From: Micavibrio sp.
Lineage (GTDB): Bacteria; Patescibacteriota; Minisyncoccia; Moranbacterales; GCA-2747515
Reading direction: 5' to 3'
Assembly (NCBI GenBank): GCA_020718085.1
Contig: DYDB01000006.1
Span: 8,510-72,509 of the forward strand
Length of the DNA: 64,000 bases
Shown: one piece after another, positions 1 through 35,345 of the stretch
How positions within the stretch are numbered: the stretch's first letter is position 1
How the letters are laid out: the number at the start of each line of letters is the position of its first letter
Position numbers and translations under genes: made by a program
Notes under the pieces: generated by a model
Databases searched by the model: none
Seen by the model: the letters and a program-made list of their open reading frames with translations, nothing else
What the model was told of the DNA's origin: nothing

Positions 1-3000
1 TGGAATTCTGTGATGGCACAGATTGGGGCGCACTTGCAGCAGGAAGTGGAGGGGGAATTGATCAGCCGACGCTTTTGGAGGACTCATGGGTAAATACGAC
101 AGCAACTTTACCAACAACGCTATATCAATCTCAAACTGCAGTGATTGGTGATTATGTTTATCTTTTTGGAGGATATGGCGCTACTATAACGAATGCTATT
201 TATCGTGCCCCCATAACAAATCCAACTGCATGGGTCAACACAGGATCGGTGATCCCGAGCAATCTGTACAATTCTCAAATTGCAGTGATCGGTGATTATA
301 TCTATCTTTTTGGTGGACAAAATCCTTCTACGACCAATACTATTTTCCGGGCACCAATCTCAAATCCAACTGCATGGACAAACACGGGTGCGACATTACC
401 AGGCGCTTTGGACGGCTCTCAAGTTGCTGTCATCGGCAGCTACGTCTACCTCTTTGGTGGGTATAATGGGTCTGCATATACAAATGTCATCTATCGAGCC
501 CCTGTTTCCGATCCAACAGCGTGGGTGAATACAGGCAGTGTGCTCCCAAGCGCCTTGCGTGCCTCCCAAGTAGCAGTGATCGGCGACTACGTTTATCTTT
601 TCGGCGGACATAATGGTTCTGCTGTGGTTAGTACAATTTTCCGTGCACCAGTCTCCAATCCGACAGCATGGGTAAATACCAATGCTACACTCCCTGGAAT
701 AAATCATTGGGCGCAAGTGGCAATCATCGGCGACTATGTCTATCTCTTTGGCGGACATAATGGTGCAGCACTTAATTCCATTTTTCGTGCACCAGTCTCC
801 AGTCCGACATCATGGGTCAACACAACATCTGTTTTGCCGACGACAATGTATTATGCACAGCCGGTGACGATCATTGGCAACAATGTCTATCTCTTTGGTG
901 GTTATAATGCATCTGGTCCTACCAATCTCATCTACCGCGCAGAAATCAAATCAGACTACCCATCCCTCGCACAAAATCCAAGTTGGAAAACCAGATACTC
1001 CACAAACGGAAGTGGTTCCACCACATCCCTCAGTTCACTCTGGGATCTCGACAGTGATACAGGTATCCAAGTAGAAGAAAGTGCAGACGAAGACATGATC
1101 AGATTTGATACAAACGGTACAGAAAAAATGCGTATCGACTCACTCGGTAATCTCACACCATCCACAAACAACACAATCTCACTCGGTTCTTCCACAAACA
1201 GATGGAAAGACCTGTATCTAAACTCAAATTCTCTTCACATCGGCACAGACGGCAATGAAGTAACTTTAAGTTACAATGAGACCACACAAACTCTAGAAAC
1301 AAATCGTTCCATCAAAACACTGGGATCAATTCAATTAGGTGATGATGCATCAGCGTGCTCTATTACCAAAGAGGGTGCAATGAAATACAATAACTCTACG
1401 AAGGTCATGGAGTTCTGTGACGGCACGACATGGAGTGTGTTTGGCGGCGCAACAAGTAGTGGAGTAGAACAGCCAACATTGTTGGAGAGTTCTTTTGTGA
1501 GCGCAGGAACGACATTGCCGACTAATCTCGGCCAATCCCAAACTGCGGTCATCGGAGATTATATCTATCTCTTTGGTGGAAGAATTGCATCTGTATATAC
1601 AAATGTGATTTACCGTGCACCTGTTACGAATCCAACAGCATGGACAAATACTGGCGCGACACTTCCAGGAAATCTCGGAATTTCTCAAATAGCTGTCATC
1701 GGCGACTACGCCTATCTCTTTGGCGGGTACAACGGATCTGCTTTTACCAATGTGATCTACCGCGCTCCAATCACCAATCCACTTGCATGGACAAATACAG
1801 GGGCAACGATCCCAGGTAATTTGGCTTACTCTCAAATAGCTGTCATCGGCGACTACGCCTATCTCTTTGGCGGATATAATGGTTCTACTTATCTTAACGT
1901 GATCTATCGTGCACCTGTTACGAATCCAACAGCATGGACAAACACTGGCGCGACACTTCCAGGAAATCTCGGAACTTCTCAAATAGCTGTCATCGGCGAC
2001 TATGTCTATCTCTTTGGCGGGTACAACGGAACGGCTGTTACTAATGTTATTTATAAAGCGCCAATCTCAAATCCAACAGCATGGACAAACACTGGTTCAA
2101 CTCTTCCAATATCGGTACATGCACATGAAATGGCAGTTATTGGCAACTACATCTATCTCTATGGTGGTAACACGACAGCTGCAGTAAATACCATCTATCG
2201 CGCTTCAGTCAATAATCCAACCAACTGGACTGATACACGTGCAGTGCTTCCAGGTGTATTACACTATTCACAATCAGCGATCATCGGTAATTACATTTAT
2301 CTCTTTGGAGGCATCAATGCATCAGCTGATACAAATGTGATCTATCGCGCACAGATCAACAATAGCTACCCATCTCTCGCGCAAAATCCAGATTGGAAAA
2401 CCAGATATGCTACAAGCGGTAGTGGTAGTGAAAGCACGGTCTCCCTCACATCTCTGTGGGATGATAATGCAGATACAGGCATCCAAGTAGAAGAAAGTGC
2501 AGACGAGGATATGATCAGATTTGATACCAATGGCACTCAGCGTATGTTCATTAGTGAAATTGGTAATATCGGTATTGGCACAACTACACTGCCAACAACA
2601 GCAAAGCTCCAAATTACTAGCGCAGCAAGCAATGCATCAAACACACTGTTCACCACAAACGATTATGCACTCAACACTACGGGATCATCCCTCGCAATTG
2701 ATTTTGGTACAACCAGTGGTAACACCTACACACAACTCTCTGCAAAAAGCGCAGGTGGTTCAGCATGGAATAACCTCGTATTGCAAGGTGGTGGGGGAAA
2801 TGTGGGAATTGGAACAACGACACCATCAGCACTTCTCGACCTTCAGAAAGCAGGTACAGCAAAATCTAATCTCGATATTCTCGAACTCACCAACAGTGCC
2901 AATGCAGCAGATATGGACACAACACAAACATCGATCCTCTTCAATCAATATTACTATGATGCAACTACACCGGCAGTAGCAGACTCAGCACGTCTTACAG

Positions 3001-4334
3001 TTGGCGCAGAACAGGATTGGACATCTACCGCTACAACGCAGGATTCTTTCATGTCATTTGCTACTGCACTTGATGGGGCACTTAGTGAAAAGGTACGGAT
3101 TACGAGCGGGGGCAATATGGGGCTTGGAACGGGAACACCTGGGGCAACACTTGATATCGCAAGCCTAATAGGGTCCAATACTCCTGGTTTAAATCATAAG
3201 TTACGATTTTCATATGGAGGTACAGGCCTGTTTGGTTGGCGGGTAGATTCTGGTAATGCTACTTTAGTTTTGGATAGTTTCGATTATTCATCAGTGTGGA
3301 ATCCAACGATATCAGTTCTAAGAAATGTTGGTTATGTAGGTATTGGCACGGCATCACCCACCCAAAAACTAACCGTCTACAACGGATCCACAACAGGCAC
3401 CTACACCACAACAGGATGGGTCCACTCATCAGATGAAAGACTAAAAACCAACATCGCATCAATCGATGATCCACTACAAAAAGTCCTTCAACTCGATGAT
3501 GTCTATTTCAATTGGAAGGCAAATCCAAATAGCGACAGACAAATTGGGTTCATCGCACAAGATGTGCAAAAGATCATTCCGGAAGTTGTCGTAGGAAACG
3601 ACAAAGATGGCTATGGAATTTCTTATGGTAATATCACAGCACTTCTCGTGGGTGCAATGCAAGAACAAAACACACTCATCGAAACAAACACAAACGACCT
3701 TACCACAAAAGCCACAGCCACATCACTAGCAGACTTGCAAAATATGACAGATGCACAATTCACAGAAACATCTGAGATCCTGAAACAAGTTCAGGATGAC
3801 ACATTAGAACTCCAACAAGAAGCAAACACACAATCAAACATTCTCACACAAATTCAACTCGATCTCACAGAACTACAAGCAGGTATAGACATGCTCACAA
3901 CACTTGGCACAATAGATGCACTCAAGCTCAGTGAACTTCTCGCAATCGATCCAAACACACTTCTCATCGCAACAGAAGAAGGCGATCTCACAATTACAGG
4001 CATCATGACAACACAACAGATCATCACAGATGAAATTGAAACAAAAAAGTTCACGATCAATGATGATGTCACGACAAAAGACGAAAATGATGAAGAGATC
4101 AGCGCAGCATCTGTAGGCACAGCAACCATTCCCGCACATGAAACGGAAACAACTGTAGAAACAGCGGCAATTACAGATACTAGTAGGGTTTTTGTGACGG
4201 CGCGCGGAGATGAGGCTGTGGATGTTACGCTCACTGTTACAGATATAAAAGATGGTATGTGCACAGTGCGCATCCCTGAAGAAAAAGAGCAAGAAGTCAT
4301 CTTTGATTGGTTTGTGGTAAGTGGAAAGGAGTAG
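1..4334 (+). CDS. Giant surface/adhesin-like protein, 5'-partial (open frame continues to window start at pos 3). Two 6-bladed Kelch-like beta-propeller modules, linker modules, a beta-helix-like region, and a C-terminal peptidase S74 intramolecular-chaperone (tail-spike auto-chaperone) domain followed by a coiled-coil tail
   Basis: Frame 3 is open from position 3 and reads EFCDGTDW...QPTLLEDS, the same module that recurs internally (MEFCDGTTWSVFGGATSSGVEQPTLLESS). There are 12 repeats of the ~50-aa unit 'xNTGATLPxxLxxSQxAVIGDYxYLFGGYNGSxxTNVIYRAPxxNPTAW' (Kelch signature: GG doublet, Y, W). The linker module 'SYPSLAQNPxWKTRY...IQVEESADEDMIRFDTNGT' is duplicated. The C-terminal 'SSDERLKTNIASIDDPLQKVLQLDDVYFNWKANPNSDRQIGFIAQDVQKIIPEVV' matches the S74 chaperone consensus (DxRLKxNI ... 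GFIAQEV). Confidence 0.7.
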   Translation, partial: EFCDGTDWGALAAGSGGGIDQPTLLEDSWVNTTATLPTTLYQSQTAVIGDYVYLFGGYGATITNAIYRAPITNPTAWVNTGSVIPSNLYNSQIAVIGDYIYLFGGQNPSTTNTIFRAPISNPTAWTNTGATLPGALDGSQVAVIGSYVYLFGGYNGSAYTNVIYRAPVSDPTAWVNTGSVLPSALRASQVAVIGDYVYLFGGHNGSAVVSTIFRAPVSNPTAWVNTNATLPGINHWAQVAIIGDYVYLFGGHNGAALNSIFRAPVSSPTSWVNTTSVLPTTMYYAQPVTIIGNNVYLFGGYNASGPTNLIYRAEIKSDYPSLAQNPSWKTRYSTNGSGSTTSLSSLWDLDSDTGIQVEESADEDMIRFDTNGTEKMRIDSLGNLTPSTNNTISLGSSTNRWKDLYLNSNSLHIGTDGNEVTLSYNETTQTLETNRSIKTLGSIQLGDDASACSITKEGAMKYNNSTKVMEFCDGTTWSVFGGATSSGVEQPTLLESSFVSAGTTLPTNLGQSQTAVIGDYIYLFGGRIASVYTNVIYRAPVTNPTAWTNTGATLPGNLGISQIAVIGDYAYLFGGYNGSAFTNVIYRAPITNPLAWTNTGATIPGNLAYSQIAVIGDYAYLFGGYNGSTYLNVIYRAPVTNPTAWTNTGATLPGNLGTSQIAVIGDYVYLFGGYNGTAVTNVIYKAPISNPTAWTNTGSTLPISVHAHEMAVIGNYIYLYGGNTTAAVNTIYRASVNNPTNWTDTRAVLPGVLHYSQSAIIGNYIYLFGGINASADTNVIYRAQINNSYPSLAQNPDWKTRYATSGSGSESTVSLTSLWDDNADTGIQVEESADEDMIRFDTNGTQRMFISEIGNIGIGTTTLPTTAKLQITSAASNASNTLFTTNDYALNTTGSSLAIDFGTTSGNTYTQLSAKSAGGSAWNNLVLQGGGGNVGIGTTTPSALLDLQKAGTAKSNLDILELTNSANAADMDTTQTSILFNQYYYDATTPAVADSARLTVGAEQDWTSTATTQDSFMSFATALDGALSEKVRITSGGNMGLGTGTPGATLDIASLIGSNTPGLNHKLRFSYGGTGLFGWRVDSGNATLVLDSFDYSSVWNPTISVLRNVGYVGIGTASPTQKLTVYNGSTTGTYTTTGWVHSSDERLKTNIASIDDPLQKVLQLDDVYFNWKANPNSDRQIGFIAQDVQKIIPEVVVGNDKDGYGISYGNITALLVGAMQEQNTLIETNTNDLTTKATATSLADLQNMTDAQFTETSEILKQVQDDTLELQQEANTQSNILTQIQLDLTELQAGIDMLTTLGTIDALKLSELLAIDPNTLLIATEEGDLTITGIMTTQQIITDEIETKKFTINDDVTTKDENDEEISAASVGTATIPAHETETTVETAAITDTSRVFVTARGDEAVDVTLTVTDIKDGMCTVRIPEEKEQEVIFDWFVVSGKE

Positions 4335-4374
4335 TCATAGCTTCTGTAAAGCAAAGTTCAACATTCTGCTAGTA

Positions 4375-4410
4375 CCCTCACCCCAACCCTCTCCCAGAGG
4401 GAGAGGGGGC
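4375..4410. repeat. 36-nt hairpin-forming repeat, copy 1 (intergenic): ccctcaccccaaccctctcccagagggagagggggc. Perfect 9-bp stem ccctctccc/gggagaggg with a 3-nt loop
   Basis: 34/36 nt identical to a second copy at 34730..34765 (inside ileS). The palindrome was read directly from the sequence. Confidence 0.6.
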
Positions 4411-4604
4411 TAAAATAGGAGAACTTTTATATAGGGATCATACTAAATAGAAATGTAAAAATTAGGTCATTGCGAGTGAAATGTAATATAGCGAAGCAAT
4501 CTCCTAAAATTATCAATAATCTGTAATACAAAGAGACTACCAAGAATATTTTCGATGATCATCGAAAGTGTTCTTGCAATGACAATGTAGGGTCTTCCAG
4601 GAAA

Positions 4605-4631
4605 TTAGCACTCTCTTCAAGAGATTGCTAA
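4605..4631 (+). promoter_or_regulatory. CIRCE element (HrcA operator) upstream of dnaJ: TTAGCACTC-N9-GATTGCTAA
   Basis: Matches the CIRCE consensus TTAGCACTC-N9-GAGTGCTAA with 2 mismatches in the right arm. It lies 70 bp upstream of the dnaJ ATG, followed by an AT-rich -10-like region. Confidence 0.75.
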
Positions 4632-4700
4632 TTTTTATTTTACATGATAATATGTGTATTATATTGATCACAGATTACTCGTTACGTATTACGAAAAACT

Positions 4701-5783
4701 ATGTCAAAAAACTATTATGATATTCTTGGTGTGTCCAAAAGTGCTTCTGCAGCTGAAATTAAAAAGGCATATCGCACATTGGCACACAAACATCATCCCG
4801 ATAAAAATGGTGGGGATGAGGCAAAATTCAAAGAGGTAAATGAGGCATATCAAGTTTTGTCAAACAAAGAGAAGCGTGCGCAATATGATCAGTTCGGACA
4901 AACTTTCAACGGCACCAATGGCGGACAAAGCGGTTTTGGCGGATACGATTTTTCGCAGTTTCAACAAGGATTTGGCAGTCAAGGATTTGAATTTAATTTT
5001 GGAGGAGATGGCATGGGAGATATTTTTTCGGAAATGTTTGGCGGAGGGGGTCGTCGCAGTCGTCGTGGACGTGATGTGCAAGTGGATGTGGAGATCAGTT
5101 TTGCAGAAATGATCCATGGTGTGAAAAAGGAAATTACCATATTTAAATCTGTGCGGTGTGATCATTGTGATGGTAAGGGTGGTGAGCCGGGAAGTAATGC
5201 ACATACATGTGCCACTTGTCAGGGAAGCGGACATATGCAAAAACGCATGCAAACAATTCTTGGTACGATCGCGCAAACGGTCGTGTGTGATACATGTGGT
5301 GGAAGAGGAAAAACATTTGATAAAAAGTGTACAAAATGCAAAGGTGTGGGACACTATCGCGAAGAAGTGCGCGAAAGCATAGATATTCCCGCCGGCATTC
5401 ATGATGGACAGGCAATTGCGATATCTGGACGTGGTGAAGTTGGTGAAAGTGGTTCAATGGCAGGAGATCTTATTGTGTCAGTACATGTTGTACCGGATCA
5501 TCGATTTACACGAGATGGTAATGATATTCATACAAAAAAACACGTGTCTTTTTCGCAAGCTGCACTTGGAGATAAAGTAATGGTGGAAACGGTGGATGGT
5601 GAAGTAAAAATGAAAATCCCGGCAGGTACACAATCTGGAGAGATTTATCGCATGCGTGGGAAAGGTGTGCCAAAACTACAAAGCATCGGTCGCGGAGATC
5701 ATTTAGTGGAGATCATTGTGGATGTTCCGACAAAACTTTCTCGCGAAGCAAAAAAACTTATTGAACAGTTGCGCGAATTATAG
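4701..5783 (+). CDS. dnaJ: Molecular chaperone DnaJ (J domain, G/F-rich region, four CxxCxGxG zinc-finger repeats, C-terminal domain)
   Basis: [21 protein letters not shown]...HPDKN (HPD motif). A G/F linker is present. Four CxxCxGxG repeats: [32 protein letters not shown]. Confidence 0.95.
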
Positions 5784-20432: not shown

Positions 20433-23400
20433 ATGAATATGAAAAGGTTGTTACAATATGTGTTGCTATTTTTTATGTCATCACTTTTGATATGTCACAC
20501 GACTTACGCAGCGGATGGTGATAGAGATCCCGATTTTTTAAGTGGTATAAACGGTGCTAATGGTGATATTTATACAACAATACTGCAACCAGATGGTAAA
20601 ATTATTATTGGAGGAGATTTTACCATTTATGGAGGAATAAATAGTCGTAATCATATTGCTCGTCTCAATGTCGATGGTTCTCTGGATATGAGTTTTGATC
20701 CGGGCAGTGGAGCTAACGATTATGTTCGCATCGCCGCTGTTCAATCCGATGGAAAAATCATTATTGGGGGAAATTTCACTACATACAATGGCATAGGCTC
20801 AAATCGCATTATTCGACTCAATGCTGACGGTTCACTAGACTCCTCATTTACCATAGGCACTGGAGCAAATAATAGTGTGACAGAAATTTCTTTTCAGTCC
20901 GATGGAAAAATCGTTATCGGTGGCAATTTCACCACATATAATGGTATATCTAGGAGTCGTATTGCTCGTCTCAATACTGACGGCACATTAGATGCGAGTT
21001 TTAATCCAGGAACGGGATTCAATGCTTCTGTGGCGGGTGTTGATATTCAATCCGATGGAAAAATTGTTGTCGGAGGTGTTTTTACCAGTTATAACAGTAT
21101 CGGCCAGAATCGCATCGCACGCCTTAATGCCGATGGCTCGTTAGACACGAGTTTCATCGTTGGTACGGGAGCAGATAGTTCTGTCCTTGCAACCGGCATG
21201 CAGACTGATGGAAAAATTATCATCGCTGGACGATTTGCCAGCTACAATGGCATTAGTATTAATGATGTTGCACGTCTCAATACTGATGGCTCGCTGGATA
21301 CAAGTTTTGATCCTGGAACGGGAACAACGGGTGATGTGGAGCAGGTTAATATGCAAACTGATGGAAAAATTGTCATTTCTGGTTATTTTAGTACATATAA
21401 TGGTACAGCAAGAAAATATATAGCTCGTCTCAATTCTGATGGTTCAGTAGATGCAAGTTTTGATCCGGGAACAGGAATTGGTGGTGAAAATCTTATTATT
21501 TTTAGTACAGCCATTCAAACAGATAACAAAATTGTTATTGGCGGAAGTTTTGATAACTATGGCGGCGTTTCTCGCAATCACATTGCACGTCTCAATGCTG
21601 ATGGCATACTCGATAATGTATTCAACATAGGTAATGGAGCGGGAACAAGCGGTGATGTCAGAGGTACGGCAACACAGTCCGATGGAAAGGTTGTTATTGT
21701 GGGAAACTTTGATAGCTATAATGGCGTTAACAGTAACTATATTGCTCGCATTAACGTTGATGGTACATTGGATACCACGTTTGATGTTGGTGCGGGGGCA
21801 AATAACTATATTTATGATGTGGGTATTCAGTCAGACGGCAAAGTTATCATTGCAGGAAGTTTCAGCGCATATAATGGCACGGCGATCAATCGTATTGCTC
21901 GTCTTAATACTGATGGAAGTCTAGATACTACTTTCAATAGCGGTTCAGCAGCAAATAATGTTATTTTTGCTATTGATATTCAGCAAAATGATAAAATTAT
22001 TATTGGTGGTAATTTCACTGCATACAACGGCACAACCAGAAACCGTATCGCGCAGCTCAATGTGGATGGTACGTTAGATGCGAACTTTTCTACAGGGGCT
22101 GGAGCGAATAATTCCATCTACAATATAGGAGTTCAATCAGATGGCAAGATTATTATTGCAGGTAACTTCACTGCATACAATGGCACAACCAGAAACCGTA
22201 TTGCGCGCGTGAATGTCGACGGCACACTAGATACAGAATTTACAGTAGGGACAGGAGCAAATAATATTATTTATACTACCATTATCCAGCCTGATGATAA
22301 GATCGTTATTGGTGGTAATTTTACCACATACAACGGTACAACCAGAAACCGTATTGCTCGCCTTGATGCCAATGGCACATTAGATGCGGCATTTACTATA
22401 GGAACAGGTGCAAATAATTATGTCTATGATATGGATATTCAATTTGACAATAAAATTGTTATTGGTGGCAACTTCACTACATACAACGGGATAATGAGAA
22501 ATTATATCGCGCGTCTTAATACTGATGGCACATTAGATACGAGTTTTGATCCGGGCTCAGGTGCAGATAGCGAGGTTAGCAGTATTGAGCTTCAGTCTGA
22601 TGGAAAAATTATGGCTGGAGGATGGTTTGAAATTTATGATAATACACATGCTGAATATGTAACAAGGATTTTATCTGATTTTCAAACTATAAGTCCAACA
22701 GTTTTTACTGGTCGAGTAAGTAACAATGCAGACGCAAGTGCTACTATGGAGGGTATCATTACGGGTACAGGCGGTGAGAATCCGGAACGTATTATCGAAT
22801 GGGGAACGGAAAGTAGTAATTATAATAACTTTTGTACGGCTGGTGTGGGAGGTATTGGGGGTTATGCATGTTCTATGACAGGGCTTACACTGAACGATAC
22901 ATATTTCATTCGAGCAAAGGCTACAAATAGTATCGGAACAAGCTATGGTCAAGAGATAACATATACACATTTTGAGTCTCTTGCGGAGACCATTGTTCCC
23001 AATGAATTTATTGGAGGAGGTGTCAGTCAAGGGTGGCAGGATGATGAAATGACGTGGGCATATACACTTCCGTTTGATTTTTCATTTTACGGTGAATTAT
23101 ATGTTGCAGGAACGTCAATTGGCATCACATCAAACGGACAAATTTGCTTGGAGGATGATTCAACTTGTGTGGATTATGAAAATAATATTACATCACAATT
23201 GCATGGACCATTTATTGCGCCATTGTGGACAGATTTAAATTCCACAAATACAGGTGGCATTTTCATTACGGAAACACCGGAATATATCGTTATCAGATGG
23301 GAAACGGAAGAATATGATGTCCCGGGAGAGGTGTTGAATTTTGAAGTCGTGCTCTATTCTAATGGTAACATTAAATTTAATTATGATACGCAAACTGCTC

Positions 23401-24089
23401 CATTGGAAAATGTTGTCGCCACGGTTGGAATTTCGAAGGGCGATGGCACATACGTTGCATCGATTTATGATGGTCATACAGACTTTAATCAAATCGACAC
23501 ATCCGCGTGGGGTGACTTCAATGCTGGCGGAAGCGCAGCACAAACTCACTCCCAATCCCTCTCCGCCACTATCCAAGAAAACCTCACTCTCACCTGCGGA
23601 GGAGATATAGACTTAGACAATAATACAACCCTCATCCCGGGCATCCCGCAATCAAATATCACAACCTGCACCGTAACCACAAATGATGCAGAAGGGTACG
23701 ATCTCCAACTCACAGATGATAGAGGATCGAATAATACACTCCAACACACAATACACGGAACAACAACGGATGGACAAATACAAGACAAAACTCCTTGGAA
23801 TCTCACATCTCCCAATGCCACAAGTTACACAGGAGAAGGACTTGCATTCGGCATCCTAAACTCCACCGCAACAAAAAACACCACCTGGTGGGGCACAGGA
23901 AATACATGCGATGATACAAATCAATTCTATGCAGGAATCCCGCAAACAGACACTACAATCATGGGACACACAACATACTCCAATACACAAACAGACACAG
24001 AGATCTGTTATCGCATAAACGTTCCATCCACACAAATCTCCGGAGAGTATACGGGGTCGGTGACGTATACGGCAACAGGGAGGCCGTAA
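20433..24089 (+). CDS. Giant secreted repeat protein: signal peptide, ~17 tandem ~55-aa 'delta-60'/beta-propeller-type repeats, and C-terminal beta-sandwich (Fn3-like) domains
   Basis: Signal peptide MKRLLQYVLLFFMSSLLICHTTYA. Repeat unit 'DGKIIIGGNFTTYNGxxRNRIARLNxDGSLDTSFxxGTGAN'. The nucleotide repeats are near-identical (e.g. 'acaaccagaaaccgtattgc' x3 at ~22030, 22185, 22340). Confidence 0.75.
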   Translation: MNMKRLLQYVLLFFMSSLLICHTTYAADGDRDPDFLSGINGANGDIYTTILQPDGKIIIGGDFTIYGGINSRNHIARLNVDGSLDMSFDPGSGANDYVRIAAVQSDGKIIIGGNFTTYNGIGSNRIIRLNADGSLDSSFTIGTGANNSVTEISFQSDGKIVIGGNFTTYNGISRSRIARLNTDGTLDASFNPGTGFNASVAGVDIQSDGKIVVGGVFTSYNSIGQNRIARLNADGSLDTSFIVGTGADSSVLATGMQTDGKIIIAGRFASYNGISINDVARLNTDGSLDTSFDPGTGTTGDVEQVNMQTDGKIVISGYFSTYNGTARKYIARLNSDGSVDASFDPGTGIGGENLIIFSTAIQTDNKIVIGGSFDNYGGVSRNHIARLNADGILDNVFNIGNGAGTSGDVRGTATQSDGKVVIVGNFDSYNGVNSNYIARINVDGTLDTTFDVGAGANNYIYDVGIQSDGKVIIAGSFSAYNGTAINRIARLNTDGSLDTTFNSGSAANNVIFAIDIQQNDKIIIGGNFTAYNGTTRNRIAQLNVDGTLDANFSTGAGANNSIYNIGVQSDGKIIIAGNFTAYNGTTRNRIARVNVDGTLDTEFTVGTGANNIIYTTIIQPDDKIVIGGNFTTYNGTTRNRIARLDANGTLDAAFTIGTGANNYVYDMDIQFDNKIVIGGNFTTYNGIMRNYIARLNTDGTLDTSFDPGSGADSEVSSIELQSDGKIMAGGWFEIYDNTHAEYVTRILSDFQTISPTVFTGRVSNNADASATMEGIITGTGGENPERIIEWGTESSNYNNFCTAGVGGIGGYACSMTGLTLNDTYFIRAKATNSIGTSYGQEITYTHFESLAETIVPNEFIGGGVSQGWQDDEMTWAYTLPFDFSFYGELYVAGTSIGITSNGQICLEDDSTCVDYENNITSQLHGPFIAPLWTDLNSTNTGGIFITETPEYIVIRWETEEYDVPGEVLNFEVVLYSNGNIKFNYDTQTAPLENVVATVGISKGDGTYVASIYDGHTDFNQIDTSAWGDFNAGGSAAQTHSQSLSATIQENLTLTCGGDIDLDNNTTLIPGIPQSNITTCTVTTNDAEGYDLQLTDDRGSNNTLQHTIHGTTTDGQIQDKTPWNLTSPNATSYTGEGLAFGILNSTATKNTTWWGTGNTCDDTNQFYAGIPQTDTTIMGHTTYSNTQTDTEICYRINVPSTQISGEYTGSVTYTATGRP

Positions 24090-24143: not shown

Positions 24144-24420
24144 GATTGCTTCTCCGCCCGAGGTGGATCGCAATGACATCCTTATATTTTAGAGAGGTCT
24201 AGTATGAGATAATACAGATTTTAAAAACAAAAAATAGCATCTTTTCAGAATGCTGTTTCTTAAGAAGTAATAAGCAAAAAATAGATTAAAAATAAACTAT
24301 TTATTGTGTTTTGTGAGTGCAAAATTGTTTTATATTTTTATATTTTTTTGATCACATAAAAGCTTTCTTTTTTGTTTTTGGCATGTTAGAGTGTGAGTGT
24401 ATCAGTTAAGTTATGGATGT

Positions 24421-32342: not shown

Positions 32343-35300
32343 ATGAAAAATTTTAAAGAAGTGGAACAAGGTAAAAAGTACGCAGAGATGGAACATGATG
32401 TGATGCAGTTTTGGCATGAGGACAAAACATTTGAAAAATCTGTAGATGGGCGCAGTGCGGAAAATACCTATGTGTTTTATGACGGTCCGCCGTTCATCAC
32501 GGGCGTACCGCATTACGGGACATTGCTCTCATCGATCATCAAAGATGTTGTTCCACGGTATTGGACGATGAAAGGCAAGCGTGTGGAGCGTCGCTGGGGG
32601 TGGGATTGTCATGGGCTTCCTGCAGAGAATTTGGTGGAAAAGCAACTTGGCATCAAAGATAAGCGCGATGTGGCGAAAGTGGGATTGGAAAAATATATTG
32701 AGACATGTCACGCTGCGATGGTGCAAGGTAGTGATGCATGGGAAAGCACGGTAGAGCGTATCGGGCGGTGGGTGAATTTCAAGGGCGCCTACAAAACGAT
32801 GGACCGTGACTATATGGAAAGTGTATGGTGGGCATTCAAAACACTCTATGATAAGAAAAAGATCTATGAGGGAGAAAAAGTGCTTTTGTATTGTCCGCGT
32901 TGTGCAACGCCAATTTCCAAAGCGGAAGTGTCGATGGATAACAGCTATCGTGATGTAACTGATCCATCGGTGTATGTGAAATTTGCACTGATTGAAGAAG
33001 ATCAAAAAAATGTCATCCCGACCGAAGTGGAGGGATCTCTCGACAAGCTCGAGATGACACCACAGACATATTTTTTGGCATGGACGACAACACCATGGAC
33101 ATTGTCGGCAAATGTGGCATTGGCAATCAATACAAAATTGACATACGTGAAGGTCCTAATTGGTGGTGAAACGTTTATTATGGCGGAAGACCTTGTATCA
33201 AAAGTGTTGGTTGATGAAAAAAAGATGTCATTGGAGCATGTTGTAATGGAAAAAAAAAGTGGAGCAGATCTTGTGAATAAAAAATACAAACCACTTTTCG
33301 ATGATCATGGTGAACATGCACATCGTATTGTTGCGGCGGATTTTGTGACGACGGAAGATGGTACGGGCATTGTGCATATTGCACCCGCGTTTGGTGAAGA
33401 TGATTATGCGCTCGCAAAGAAAGAGAATTTACCACTTGTGAACACGGTGGATGATAATGGCTTGTATAAAGATGGGCGATGGGCTGGTCAGCATGTGTGG
33501 GAGATCAATAAGGAAATCGCGAAGACGCTTCTGCGTGAAGGCGTGGTGTTTAAAATTGAGTATATTCAACATGAGTACCCGCATTGTCACAGATGTGATA
33601 CGAAGCTTATGTATCGTGCACATCCGAGTTGGTTCATGGATATTGATGGACAGCGATCTGAAATGCTTGCAAAAAATGAGAATATCAACTGGTTTCCAAC
33701 GCATATCAAACAGAAGCGTTTTCGCAATACGGTGGAGACGGCACCAGATTGGAATTTGAGTCGTGACCGTTTCTGGGCGACGCCGCTTCCTGTGTGGCGC
33801 GGAACCAAAGAAGATGGCACGATGGTGGAAAAAGTGATCGGCAGTTATGCGGAACTTAAAGAATTATCGGGAAAGGAACTTCCGGATTATCATTTGCCGT
33901 ACGTGGACGCCGTGACATTTGAGTGGGAGGGGGTTACGATGAAGCGCATTGATAAGGTTATGGATTGTTGGTTTGAGTCCGGCTCAATGCCGTTTGCACA
34001 ATTTCATTATCCGTTTGAGAACAAAGAAAAATTTGAGGCAAATTTCCCCGGTGATTTCATCGCAGAATATGTGGGACAGGTACGTGCGTGGTTTTATTAT
34101 ATGCATGCAATTTCCGTGGGCATCTTTGGTGAAGAGGCATTCAAAAATGTGATCGTGACGGGAACGATCGCGGGTAATGATGGGCGCAAGATGTCCAAAT
34201 CATATGGAAATTATACAGCGCCGGAGATCTTATTGGAAAAATACAGCGCCGATGCACTCCGATATTTACTTGTAAGCTCACCACTTCTTAATGGTGAGGA
34301 TTTTGCGCTTGTGGATAAAGATGTTGCGGATGTGCAAAGAAAGCTCGGAACACTGTGGAATAGCTATTCATTTTTTGTCATGTACGCCAATGTAGATGGA
34401 TGGAAACCATCAGAAAGCAAAGGGGCACCAAAAAGTGAAAATGTATTGGATCAATGGATCGTTTCACAGTTGCATACACTAATTGCTCAAGTGGACGCTG
34501 ATATGCAAAGGTACGATCTGCCAAATGCATCAAAGCCGATCATAAAATTCATCGATGATCTGTCAAATTGGTACATTCGTCGTTCTCGTAAGCGATTTTG
34601 GAAAAGTGAAAATGATGGTGACAAAAACAATGCATATGCAACACTGCATTATGTGCTTGTGGAATTATCCAAGGTAATGGCACCATTCACACCATTTATT
34701 GCGGAAGAGATCTATGGGAATCTCACTTGCCCTCACCCCAAGCCTCTCCCAAAGGGAGAGGGGGCAGCTGCTTCTGTACATTTGACCGATTTTCCTAAGG
34801 GTGATGTAGGTTTGATCAATGAAGATTTGAATATGCAAATGCAAAGAACGCGTGATGTGATCAGTGAAGGGCTTAAACTGCGCGCACGTACACAGCTCAA
34901 GGTACGTCAACCACTACAAAAGTTAATGGTGGTGAGTGAAAAATGGCATGTTTCACAAGAGATGGAAGATATTGTGTGTGAAGAGTTAAATGTCAAAGAA
35001 GTTGTCGATGTAGAAAAAATTGATGGTGAGCAGAAAAATATTGGAGAGATCGATGGTATAAAGATCGAACTTGATATCGTAGTAACGGATGCATTGAAAT
35101 TGGAGGGACAGGCCAGAGAGGCTATTCGCTACATCCAACAATTGCGCAAAAAAGCCGACTATAATGTGGATGATCGCATCGCCGTAGGAATTGACGGTAT
35201 GGCAGATGTTTTTACTGCGCACAAAGATGATATAGCACATGAAGTATTGGCACAGACGATCGTGCAAGGGGTTGTGGAAGATCATGATATCACAGAGGAG

Positions 35301-35345
35301 TGTGAGATCGATGGGAAAAAAGTGACGATTTCTTTAAAGAAGTAA
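32343..35345 (+). CDS. ileS: Isoleucine--tRNA ligase (type 2, eukaryote/archaeal-like), carrying a 12-aa in-frame insertion encoded by a hairpin repeat
   Basis: HIGH-region 'PPFITGVPHYGTLLS', 'WDCHGLP', editing (CP1) domain, KMSKS 'RKMSKSYGNY'. 1000 aa. The insertion 'CPHPKPLPKGEG' at 34730..34765 corresponds to repeat copy 2. Confidence 0.9.
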   Translation: MKNFKEVEQGKKYAEMEHDVMQFWHEDKTFEKSVDGRSAENTYVFYDGPPFITGVPHYGTLLSSIIKDVVPRYWTMKGKRVERRWGWDCHGLPAENLVEKQLGIKDKRDVAKVGLEKYIETCHAAMVQGSDAWESTVERIGRWVNFKGAYKTMDRDYMESVWWAFKTLYDKKKIYEGEKVLLYCPRCATPISKAEVSMDNSYRDVTDPSVYVKFALIEEDQKNVIPTEVEGSLDKLEMTPQTYFLAWTTTPWTLSANVALAINTKLTYVKVLIGGETFIMAEDLVSKVLVDEKKMSLEHVVMEKKSGADLVNKKYKPLFDDHGEHAHRIVAADFVTTEDGTGIVHIAPAFGEDDYALAKKENLPLVNTVDDNGLYKDGRWAGQHVWEINKEIAKTLLREGVVFKIEYIQHEYPHCHRCDTKLMYRAHPSWFMDIDGQRSEMLAKNENINWFPTHIKQKRFRNTVETAPDWNLSRDRFWATPLPVWRGTKEDGTMVEKVIGSYAELKELSGKELPDYHLPYVDAVTFEWEGVTMKRIDKVMDCWFESGSMPFAQFHYPFENKEKFEANFPGDFIAEYVGQVRAWFYYMHAISVGIFGEEAFKNVIVTGTIAGNDGRKMSKSYGNYTAPEILLEKYSADALRYLLVSSPLLNGEDFALVDKDVADVQRKLGTLWNSYSFFVMYANVDGWKPSESKGAPKSENVLDQWIVSQLHTLIAQVDADMQRYDLPNASKPIIKFIDDLSNWYIRRSRKRFWKSENDGDKNNAYATLHYVLVELSKVMAPFTPFIAEEIYGNLTCPHPKPLPKGEGAAASVHLTDFPKGDVGLINEDLNMQMQRTRDVISEGLKLRARTQLKVRQPLQKLMVVSEKWHVSQEMEDIVCEELNVKEVVDVEKIDGEQKNIGEIDGIKIELDIVVTDALKLEGQAREAIRYIQQLRKKADYNVDDRIAVGIDGMADVFTAHKDDIAHEVLAQTIVQGVVEDHDITEECEIDGKKVTISLKK
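34730..34765. repeat. 36-nt hairpin repeat, copy 2, inserted in-frame within ileS: ccctcaccccaagcctctcccaaagggagagggggc
   Basis: 34/36 identity with the intergenic copy at 4375..4410. It lies in the ileS reading frame (codon phase checked: C-P-H-P-K-P-L-P-K-G-E-G). Confidence 0.6.

Follow-up and report, generated by a model that had tools for sequence, protein, structure and literature searches.

Within a 64,000-nucleotide (nt) stretch of contig DYDB01000006.1, from a Patescibacteria genome placed in Moranbacterales (hereafter the window, meaning the whole stretch that was analysed), the ileS gene carries an in-frame copy of a short GC-rich repeat that belongs to the family known as BoxC, PIT or TM_ECO. 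The gene (32343..35345, + strand) encodes a type-2 (eukaryote-like) isoleucyl-tRNA synthetase (IleRS) of 1000 amino acids (aa). The copy, at 34730..34765, makes the gene exactly 36 nt longer than its nearest orthologs, in a loop where repeat-like inserts recur among related lineages. The reading that we favour, with a probability of about 0.75, is that a selfish or neutral structured repeat of the BoxC/PIT/TM_ECO family inserted in ileS and is tolerated there as a translated loop. The first-pass annotation of this DNA had proposed a short dispersed repeat, in phase and tolerated in an essential gene, and this proposal agrees with the empty orthologs, the intergenic twin of the repeat, the sharp-ended copies in other genomes and the low-confidence coil modelled for the insert.

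The consensus CCCTCACCCCAA[C/G]CCTCTCCCA[G/A]AGGGAGAGGGGGC matched the window only at 4375-4410 (copy 1) and 34730-34765 (copy 2), both on the + strand, and hence on the - strand in the published orientation of the family. The two copies are identical at 34 of 36 positions, and their similarity stops at identical boundaries. No further copies were found in the window at up to three mismatches, and 100 dinucleotide-preserving shuffles of the window gave no matches, so that none is expected by chance; the two copies reported in the first pass, with their positions and identity, were thus confirmed. On the minus strand, copy 1 reads CCCTCTCCC-TCT-GGGAGAGGG-TTG-GGGTGAGGG and copy 2 reads CCCTCTCCC-TTT-GGGAGAGGC-TTG-GGGTGAGGG. 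Copy 1 is spanned by no open reading frame (ORF). It lies 41 nt past the stop codon of a 1419-aa Kelch-repeat ORF (75..4334) and 290 nt before dnaJ (4701..5783; Pfam DnaJ, DnaJ_CXXCXGXG and DnaJ_C), which places it between the giant Kelch-repeat gene and the promoter/CIRCE region of dnaJ, intergenic as had been claimed. In copy 2, the C-rich complement is the sense strand of ileS and encodes (C)PHPKPLPKGEG(A). The GC content of the element is 69%, against 0.34 at third codon positions (GC3) of the flanking ileS codons, in a window of about 40% GC, which supports the earlier remark that its composition is foreign to the host.

The element is not a simple hairpin. The stem is perfect over 9 bp in copy 1 (CCCTCTCCC/GGGAGAGGG), but in copy 2 a G for C at 34742 shortens the perfect stem to 8 bp, so that the 9-bp stem originally described holds for one copy of the two. 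In addition to the hairpin, which had been recognised correctly, the 5' part of the element, CCCTCACCCC, forms a third arm that mirrors the stem. The element hairpins are the strongest local ones in the window, at about -18 kcal/mol. The fold energies of the 61-nt stretches around the copies were ordinary when compared with shuffles (z of -0.8 to -1.3), and folding statistics were therefore dropped as evidence. By its sequence, the reality of the element is grounded in its repetition and its family membership and not in folding statistics.

Copy 1 (4375-4407, minus strand) fits exactly the pattern published for TM_ECO, 5'-CCCTCNCCC-N3-6-GGGNGAGGG-N3-GGGNGAGGG-[G/T/C/-], for which one mismatch is allowed (PMC4666352), and copy 2 (34730-34762, minus strand) fits it with one mismatch, located in GGGAGAGGC; the pattern had no matches in shuffled sequence. 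When GGGTGAGGG is laid antiparallel on GGGAGAGGG, copy 1 gives only G.G, A.A and T.A triads, as read from the sequence, and copy 2 loses one terminal base pair of the duplex (C for G at 34742 on the minus strand). The G-rich strand GGGAGAGGGTTGGGGTGAGGG also fits a G-quadruplex pattern. A family search pattern that fixed only 24 bases of the element matched 79 unrelated IMG/VR contigs, and in these matches the bases left free were also conserved (CCCT upstream, C before the stem and G after it), while the sequences beyond were unrelated. The element is therefore a discrete unit of 35-36 nt. Judged by these patterns, the 36-mer is a canonical member of the BoxC/PIT/TM_ECO family, so that the repeat itself was already known.

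The three names were given in succession to one element: BoxC in the 1990s (Bachellier et al.), PIT, for potential intrastrand triplex (Hoyne & Maher 2000, 2002), and TM_ECO (Holder et al. 2015, PMC4666352). The isolated G-rich strand of E. coli sequences forms a stable purine-motif triplex in vitro, as observed by circular dichroism and nuclear magnetic resonance, while the triplex was undetected in double-stranded DNA or in vivo (PMC4666352). The same study reported 23 copies in E. coli K-12, always intergenic, and 3610 copies across 262 proteobacterial genomes. It found no mobility genes associated with the elements, unusual variability between strains at element-carrying loci, and a tendency of the family to be deleted in E. 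coli.

The host gene was identified by Pfam domains (tRNA-synt_1, 1e-120; Anticodon_1, aa 703-860; DUF5915) and by 8000 homologs, the best of which are annotated as isoleucine--tRNA ligases of Moranbacteria/Parcubacteria (Patescibacteria). When the window IleRS was aligned with 60 relatives, three residues (GEE, GGE, ENE and others) separated the conserved segments ...EEIY.NLT and SVHL.DFP in most sequences, and 15 in the window protein. This 15-codon linker, CPHPKPLPKGEGAAA (aa 796-810; 34728..34772, + strand), was delimited by protein and codon alignments and consists of the element with 2 nt before it and 7 nt after it. The closest orthologs (82%, 76% and 71-75% identical) all have the plain three-residue linker. 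At the nucleotide level, the 82% identical ortholog (P0002) reads ACA-GAA-AAT-GAG-TCT and the window gene reads ACT-TG|36 nt|A-GCT-GCT-TCT, a difference of exactly +36 nt with nothing duplicated. The 12-aa insert described in the first pass between EEIYGNLT and SVHLTDFP is thus right as a net gain of 12 aa, but the segment itself has 15 residues where orthologs have three. On a neighbour-joining tree of IleRS calculated with the linker removed, the window sequence is sister to P0002 and nested among sequences with three-residue linkers, which indicates that the insertion is derived and lineage-specific. The orthologs that bear the same peptide also carry the nucleotide repeat, the opposite of a peptide conserved without it. 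As read from the sequence, stop codons are absent from the element in every sense-strand frame and in two of the three antisense frames, and the element-encoded segment of IleRS would yield the candidate tryptic peptide GEGAAASVHLTDFPK.

The insertion site lies inside the Anticodon_1 envelope (residues 703-860). In the solved type-2 IleRS structure 8c8w, the site reads NLT-G-K-SVHL, and the insert aligns to a 13-residue gap. An AlphaFold2 model of the window IleRS (mean pLDDT, the predicted local confidence score, 73.8) ends a helix at residue 795 and places a coil at 796-811, with pLDDT below 50 at 801-808 and of about 90 in the neighbouring blocks. An ortholog alignment had been suggested as a check of whether the insert occupies a loop, and both the clean +36-nt difference and this low-confidence coil point that way. 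In an exhaustive search of 150 cluster representatives, the linker has three residues in sequences of the Candidate Phyla Radiation (CPR) type and about nine in many others, which indicates a naturally length-variable loop. According to the model, the insert is a flexible 12-residue loop in the anticodon-binding domain. Ordinary translation into a Pro/Gly-rich loop is the simplest reading, since 36 nt keeps the frame and introduces no stop codons.

Repeat-like inserts in the IleRS alignment concentrate at this one linker, and insertion there is recurrent. The same element was found in the same nucleotide register, orientation and frame in two other deep lineages, one represented by P0011, P0013 and P0014 (69% identical to the window protein) and one by L290, a contig of a Patescibacteria metagenome-assembled genome whose C-terminal half of IleRS is at most about 53% identical to the other sequences examined. 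The shared register begins 2 nt into the first codon of the linker and ends 7 nt before TCT-GTN-CAT. The first lineage reads ACC-AG|CCCTCACCCCAACCCTCTCCCGGAGGGCGAGGGGGT|T-CCT-GTA-TCT, and the L290 copy is identical at 35 of 35 positions to the intergenic copy of the window. Among the three element-bearing ileS genes, the elements are 86-92% identical, with a GC content of 69-75% against a flanking GC3 of 0.32-0.34, whereas 100 flanking codons show 66-69% nucleotide identity and only 44-46% at third positions. The copies are therefore not neutrally drifting remnants of one old insertion. Comparison of P0011, P0013 and P0014 with one another was uninformative about DNA-level constraint, as these genes differ by 2-5 nt and represent the same strain cluster.

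Other repeats occupy the linker in further relatives. Triplex-type variants with different arm sequences were found in P0040 (CCCCTCCCC-AG-CCCTCCCCTG-AGTA-CAGGGGAGGG), in P0060 (a tandem pair in a different frame) and in L459. P0003 carries a different hairpin, ATCCTGAA-ACAAG-TTCAGGAT (peptide ILKQVQDD), L500 and L502 carry a GTAG-tagged palindrome (GTAGGAACAGAGCG/CGCTCTGTTCCTAC) that resembles repetitive extragenic palindromes (REPs), L509 carries two tandem elements, and P0035 and several cluster representatives carry inserts of other hairpin families. Relatives with other repeat families in the linker thus include L185, L186, L187, L189, L459, L500, L502 and L509. Among 80 further metagenomic ileS loci, about 80% have a linker of three or four residues and about seven have long inserts. 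The CPR sampling was centred on ileS, and the apparent preference for the linker is biased to that extent. Besides short repeats, Patescibacteria IleRS genes seem to gain whole extra domains: the IleRS of P0004 and P0037 carries a NUDIX domain (PF00293), and in L290:1-2048 the C-terminal half of IleRS is immediately preceded, in the reading frame, by a segment resembling a histidine phosphatase (..SSPLKRAQETAEII..).

Beyond the window, a scan of genome collections for the subtype with TTG as its second loop gave at least 119 loci of named genomes. Among the matches listed were Alpha-, Beta- and Gammaproteobacteria, Planctomycetota, Acidobacteriota, Chloroflexota (Dehalococcoidia and Anaerolineae), Nitrospirota, Nitrospinota, Armatimonadota, Myxococcota, Vampirovibrio and Binatia, and the single Patescibacteria match among these loci was L290. 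A near-identical 35-mer occurs in more than 10 phyla and in many viral contigs, and the element is also present on some E. coli plasmids; the viral-contig and plasmid copies were not found in the 2015 study (PMC4666352). E. coli genomes have a median of 16 similar places each. In a comparison set of 275 non-redundant copies from viral and genome collections, the GC of the host loci ranges from 0.35 to 0.73, with a median of 0.62. All three arms are invariant, which the design of the search patterns partly imposed, and the loops are free to vary. Base composition in the left flank matches the background, and the right end is GGGAGAGGG-GG-(C). Over these 275 copies no border direct repeat of 2-4 nt stands out, and no flank consensus was found. 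A unit with sharp, identical ends recurs in hundreds of unrelated contigs.

Canonical copies are rare in the approximately 0.85 Mb of CPR DNA examined, which is the ileS-centred sample; the sole other one lies upstream of recO in the P0013 lineage. Three of the five CPR copies are in ileS and two are intergenic. The copy density is 2 per 64 kb in the window and 2 per 23 kb in the P0013 lineage. All CPR copies have the C-rich strand as the sense strand, in a sample too small to interpret, and GC skew is positive on the C-rich strand over most of the window. The recO-associated copy (L184:13784-13818, also L438:7781-7815) ends 8-9 nt before the start codon, and its GGGAGAGGGGG arm consequently falls at the place expected of a ribosome-binding site; several viral-contig copies likewise lie shortly before a start codon. 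A DUF559 pseudogene annotated with a 'missing C-terminus' is, in several E. coli genomes, truncated right next to a triplex-motif copy (L319:1163-1540, NZ_CP027579.1, between sapF and fabI). This copy, which falls under a 'DUF559' coding sequence, was considered as a further in-frame insertion and rejected, as the gene is a truncated pseudogene ending at the element; the element may have taken part in disrupting the gene.

The favoured reading can be put together as follows. The unit is a GC-rich sequence of 34-37 nt with a 9-bp hairpin and a third G-rich arm, which as single-stranded DNA can fold into a purine-motif intrastrand triplex. It would spread in a non-autonomous manner by a single-stranded, structure-dependent route supplied in trans, and its mobility is suggested by presence and absence among relatives, as judged from their sequences. 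One copy entered the anticodon-binding domain, where it added a discrete unit of +36 nt to the short linker that follows the helix ending in ...EEIYGNLT. Its survival would have been helped by a length that is a multiple of three, a stop-free sense frame, the Pro/Gly-rich peptide PHPKPLPKGEG and a loop of naturally variable length. The insert would then be translated as an extra flexible loop that the enzyme tolerates, probably without harm and with no host function needed. In a compact genome, the element might survive only where a 36-nt, stop-free, Pro/Gly-coding insertion is harmless.

Several observations weigh against this reading. The relatives used for presence and absence are no closer than 82% protein identity, with no empty site in a near-identical strain, and the exact window allele is on record in no other assembly. 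Random insertion followed by passive tolerance sits uneasily with one nucleotide register shared by three deep lineages. The arms are identical across phyla while the loops vary, a pattern that resembles constraint more than the decay of a selfish element. The production and activity of this IleRS are likewise presumed from its gene sequence. The shared register could reflect a target preference, a narrow selective filter (chance of about 0.01-0.11) or a constraint at the nucleic-acid level.

The first of these would imply that the ileS linker, or its DNA or RNA structure, is a preferred 'safe harbour' for this element and for other mini-hairpin families, and that the three same-register copies are independent directed events, which we regard as conceivable but doubtful. 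The shared register, orientation and frame occur in proteins only 53-69% identical, with many empty-site lineages between them. The L290 copy, the only Patescibacteria match among the loci listed by an unbiased scan, is at this very site, the linker also hosts five or more other repeat families, and different REPs at about the same recB site of two Xanthomonas species provide a precedent (PMC3733652). However, neither the five CPR copies nor the 275 from other genomes share a flank motif, the ileS-centred sampling inflates the apparent preference, and the related element of P0060 is in a different frame. A 9-nt linker offers only about 10 positions, perhaps with one frame favoured, and the coincidence would then arise by chance with a probability of about 0.01-0.11. 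If the integration were directed, these copies would be the first natural 'before and after' sites for a family whose spread has been unexplained since the 1990s, and the clean +36 nt without duplication would suggest a structure- or sequence-guided single-strand mechanism common across phyla. The second, selection at the nucleic-acid level for a GC-rich hairpin that, with or without its proline-rich peptide, is useful in the ileS mRNA, appears unlikely. Ribosomes might be delayed by such a hairpin ahead of the C-terminal domains, which would assist folding during translation, or the hairpin might make the mRNA more stable. The 86-92% conservation of the element, third codon positions included, against 44-46% at flanking third positions would fit this, as would the perfect match of the L290 copy to the intergenic one, the locally outstanding strength of the element hairpins and the several unrelated hairpin-forming inserts that other lineages have there. 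Recently inserted members of a conserved family would be just as similar, though, and about 80% of CPR-like IleRS genes, including those of the closest relatives, have no insert. Where inserts are present, they vary in family, length (about 10-61 aa) and frame, and tests in E. coli showed no promoter, terminator or in vivo polymerase-blocking effect of the element (PMC4666352).

Even less probable, in our view, is a single entry in a Patescibacteria ancestor followed by vertical descent and precise loss in most descendants. Identical register and frame in three lineages would follow directly from such a history, one Moranbacteria IleRS clade has inserts in almost every member, and the reported proneness of the family to deletion in E. 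coli would help (PMC4666352). Yet many independent deletions would be needed, each restoring the exact three-residue linker, and sister lineages carry unrelated inserts, such as P0035 beside P0013. The flanking synonymous sites are near saturation against 86-92% identity of the elements, which excludes a neutral relic. Least probable of all is an artefact of assembly or binning, in which a short repeat common to different contigs was misassembled and brought in the 36 bases. The sequence does come from a metagenome-assembled genome and its exact allele is unrecorded elsewhere, but both flanks continue the frame of one gene, no orthologous residue is lost and the difference is exactly +36 nt. 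A 36-nt repeat is also shorter than typical k-mer problems of assembly need to create an internal insertion. Because frame and residues are kept, and because the same architecture is seen in other, independently assembled lineages (P0013, in 16 contigs from several samples, L290 and L438), we consider this explanation highly improbable.

A transposase was also sought. A tblastn search of the 64-kb window with a Patescibacteria Y1_Tnp protein gave no Y1 transposase (best E = 2.5). The only such gene near an ileS is an IS200-like Y1 transposase at L186:7600-8640, 1.7 kb upstream of ileS, which lies between two copies of a hairpin of its own (CCCTGCGTGTCCGAGTACAGACAACGCAGGG and a close variant) in a REPtron-like arrangement. 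As these hairpins are unrelated to the element and the window has no homolog, a Y1/IS200 mobiliser was rejected for the DNA examined.

The window ileS contains a second, unrelated mini-hairpin element at 33012..33058 (+ strand; GTCATC...ATCTCTCGA-CAAGC-TCGAGAT-GAC). This element, GTCATCCCGACCGAAGTGGAGGGATCTCTCGACAAGCTCGAGATGAC, encodes ..VIPTEVEGSLDKLEMT within a 20-aa segment (aa 220-239; nt 33000-33059) that is present only in the window protein among the aligned IleRS sequences. Its DNA has a fold z of -2.5, and the model places the segment in a coil whose pLDDT is under 50. Sharp-ended copies of the core (a)GATCC-CTCGACAAGCTCGGGATGAC were found in eight viral-contig loci, and the window version keeps the stem via paired changes. 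Beyond these two elements in ileS, no further in-frame GC-rich mini-inserts were found in the window, where other GC-rich islands look like ordinary coding sequence.

A third hairpin family (GTCATTGCGA...GCAATC) is intergenic at 4466-4501 (+ strand), 56 nt downstream of the intergenic triplex-motif copy, and at 24144-24177 (- strand), where it follows a terminator-like hairpin after the DUF5122 gene; its pattern GTCATTGCGAG-N4-30-GCGAAGCAATC occurs in at least 120 viral-contig loci. A CIRCE-like inverted repeat, TTAGCACTC-TCTTCAAGA-GATTGCTAA, precedes dnaJ by about 70 nt, at approximately 4604-4630, which we take, from its consensus, to be the classical HrcA heat-shock operator and which accounts for spurious palindromic Rfam hits at 4607-4629. 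Two giant proteins, the 1419-aa Kelch-repeat protein (75-4334) with its Peptidase_S74 (endosialidase chaperone, tail-fibre-like) domain and a 1218-aa protein with 13 DUF5122 beta-propeller repeats (20433-24089), are the source of the large tandem-repeat families that the repeat scan showed.

BoxC/PIT repeats have been known for about 30 years and are described in the literature as intergenic and essentially proteobacterial, with function and spread unexplained. Our literature searches returned no report of the family inside a coding sequence or in Patescibacteria, of near-identity across more than 10 phyla or presence in viral contigs, or of a repeatedly invaded IleRS linker with same-register copies. 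The intragenic and Patescibacteria context, the near-identity over more than 10 phyla with the presence in viral contigs, and the invaded linker therefore appear to be new. Entry into a gene as a discrete 36-nt unit without target duplication constrains models of movement. In metagenome-predicted proteins, such elements also account for unusual inserts rich in Pro and Gly and for peptide similarities that are spurious (PHPNPLPEGEG, SLDKLEMT, ILKQVQDD). The finding overturns nothing, and gives a concrete handle on the old and neglected question of how these repeats spread.

The window repeat is not a miniature inverted-repeat transposable element, being 36 nt against a typical 50-400 bp, with no border duplication over the 275 copies and a gain of +36 nt in ileS without duplication. 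It is not a CRISPR repeat, since the two copies lie 30 kb apart with no array, and Rfam CRISPR-DR32 scores 17.9 bits against a gathering score of 48; the Rfam scan of the window gave no family at the gathering score, and permissive hits near copy 1 were noise. An intrinsic terminator was rejected at copy 1, as no terminator-like site was found in 4250-4750 and the hairpin is followed by TAAAATAGG with no T-run, and a promoter scan there gave nothing convincing. The element shares with REPs and their RAYT transposases (Di Nocera et al. 2013, PMC3733652) the form of short (20-40 nt) GC-rich hairpins, mostly extragenic and sometimes intragenic, for which recognition of single-stranded hairpins is the proposed route of mobilisation. 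Unlike REPs, which form species-specific families, it has a third mirror arm and is near-identical across phyla. It begins with CCCT and ends with GGGGGC, with no GTAG or CGTC at or next to the ends of either copy and with unconserved flanks, so that the tag typical of REPs is missing.

Mobile GC clusters, or 'byp' elements, reportedly occur in yeast mitochondrial genes, a finding ascribed to Lang et al. in 2014. They are likewise short GC-rich hairpins that invade protein-coding genes of AT-rich genomes. Often their length is not divisible by three, and the ribosome bypasses them, whereas the window element is exactly 36 nt and stop-free, so that ordinary translation suffices, and no sequence relationship was found.

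A parallel in placement is offered by the Rickettsia palindromic elements (RPEs; Ogata et al. 2000, summarised in PMC10969869), which are selfish palindromes inserted in frame in many genes. RPEs too sit in frame in unrelated and often essential genes of a reduced genome, and their translation into extra surface segments is compatible with the function of the proteins, but they measure about 100-150 bp, form families found only in Rickettsia and specify a conserved peptide that is 30-50 aa long, while the window element is 36 nt, occurs in many phyla and is of the triplex type. Membership was rejected, as size and host differ and no sequence relationship exists, and only the in-frame insertion in housekeeping genes is shared. 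An essential aminoacyl-tRNA synthetase that tolerates two unrelated mini-elements as translated loops extends the RPE idea, of proteins decorated with selfish repeats, to a new phylum and a new element family.

It is with the BoxC/PIT/TM_ECO elements of E. coli and other Proteobacteria that the window copies agree in sequence. They have the identical three arms CCCTCTCCC / GGGAGAGGG / GGGTGAGGG, a length of 34-37 nt, variable loops, sharp ends, several dispersed copies per genome and no associated transposase. Copy 1 is intergenic like those of E. coli. The second loop is TTG in the window copies, compared with TTA in E. coli type A and CCG, TCG or CTG in type B, and the window host is not a proteobacterium but an AT-rich (40% GC) member of Patescibacteria. 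Unlike the E. coli K-12 copies, reported to be always intergenic, copy 2 is in frame inside the essential ileS gene, a difference that concerns placement and not the sequence that defines the family.

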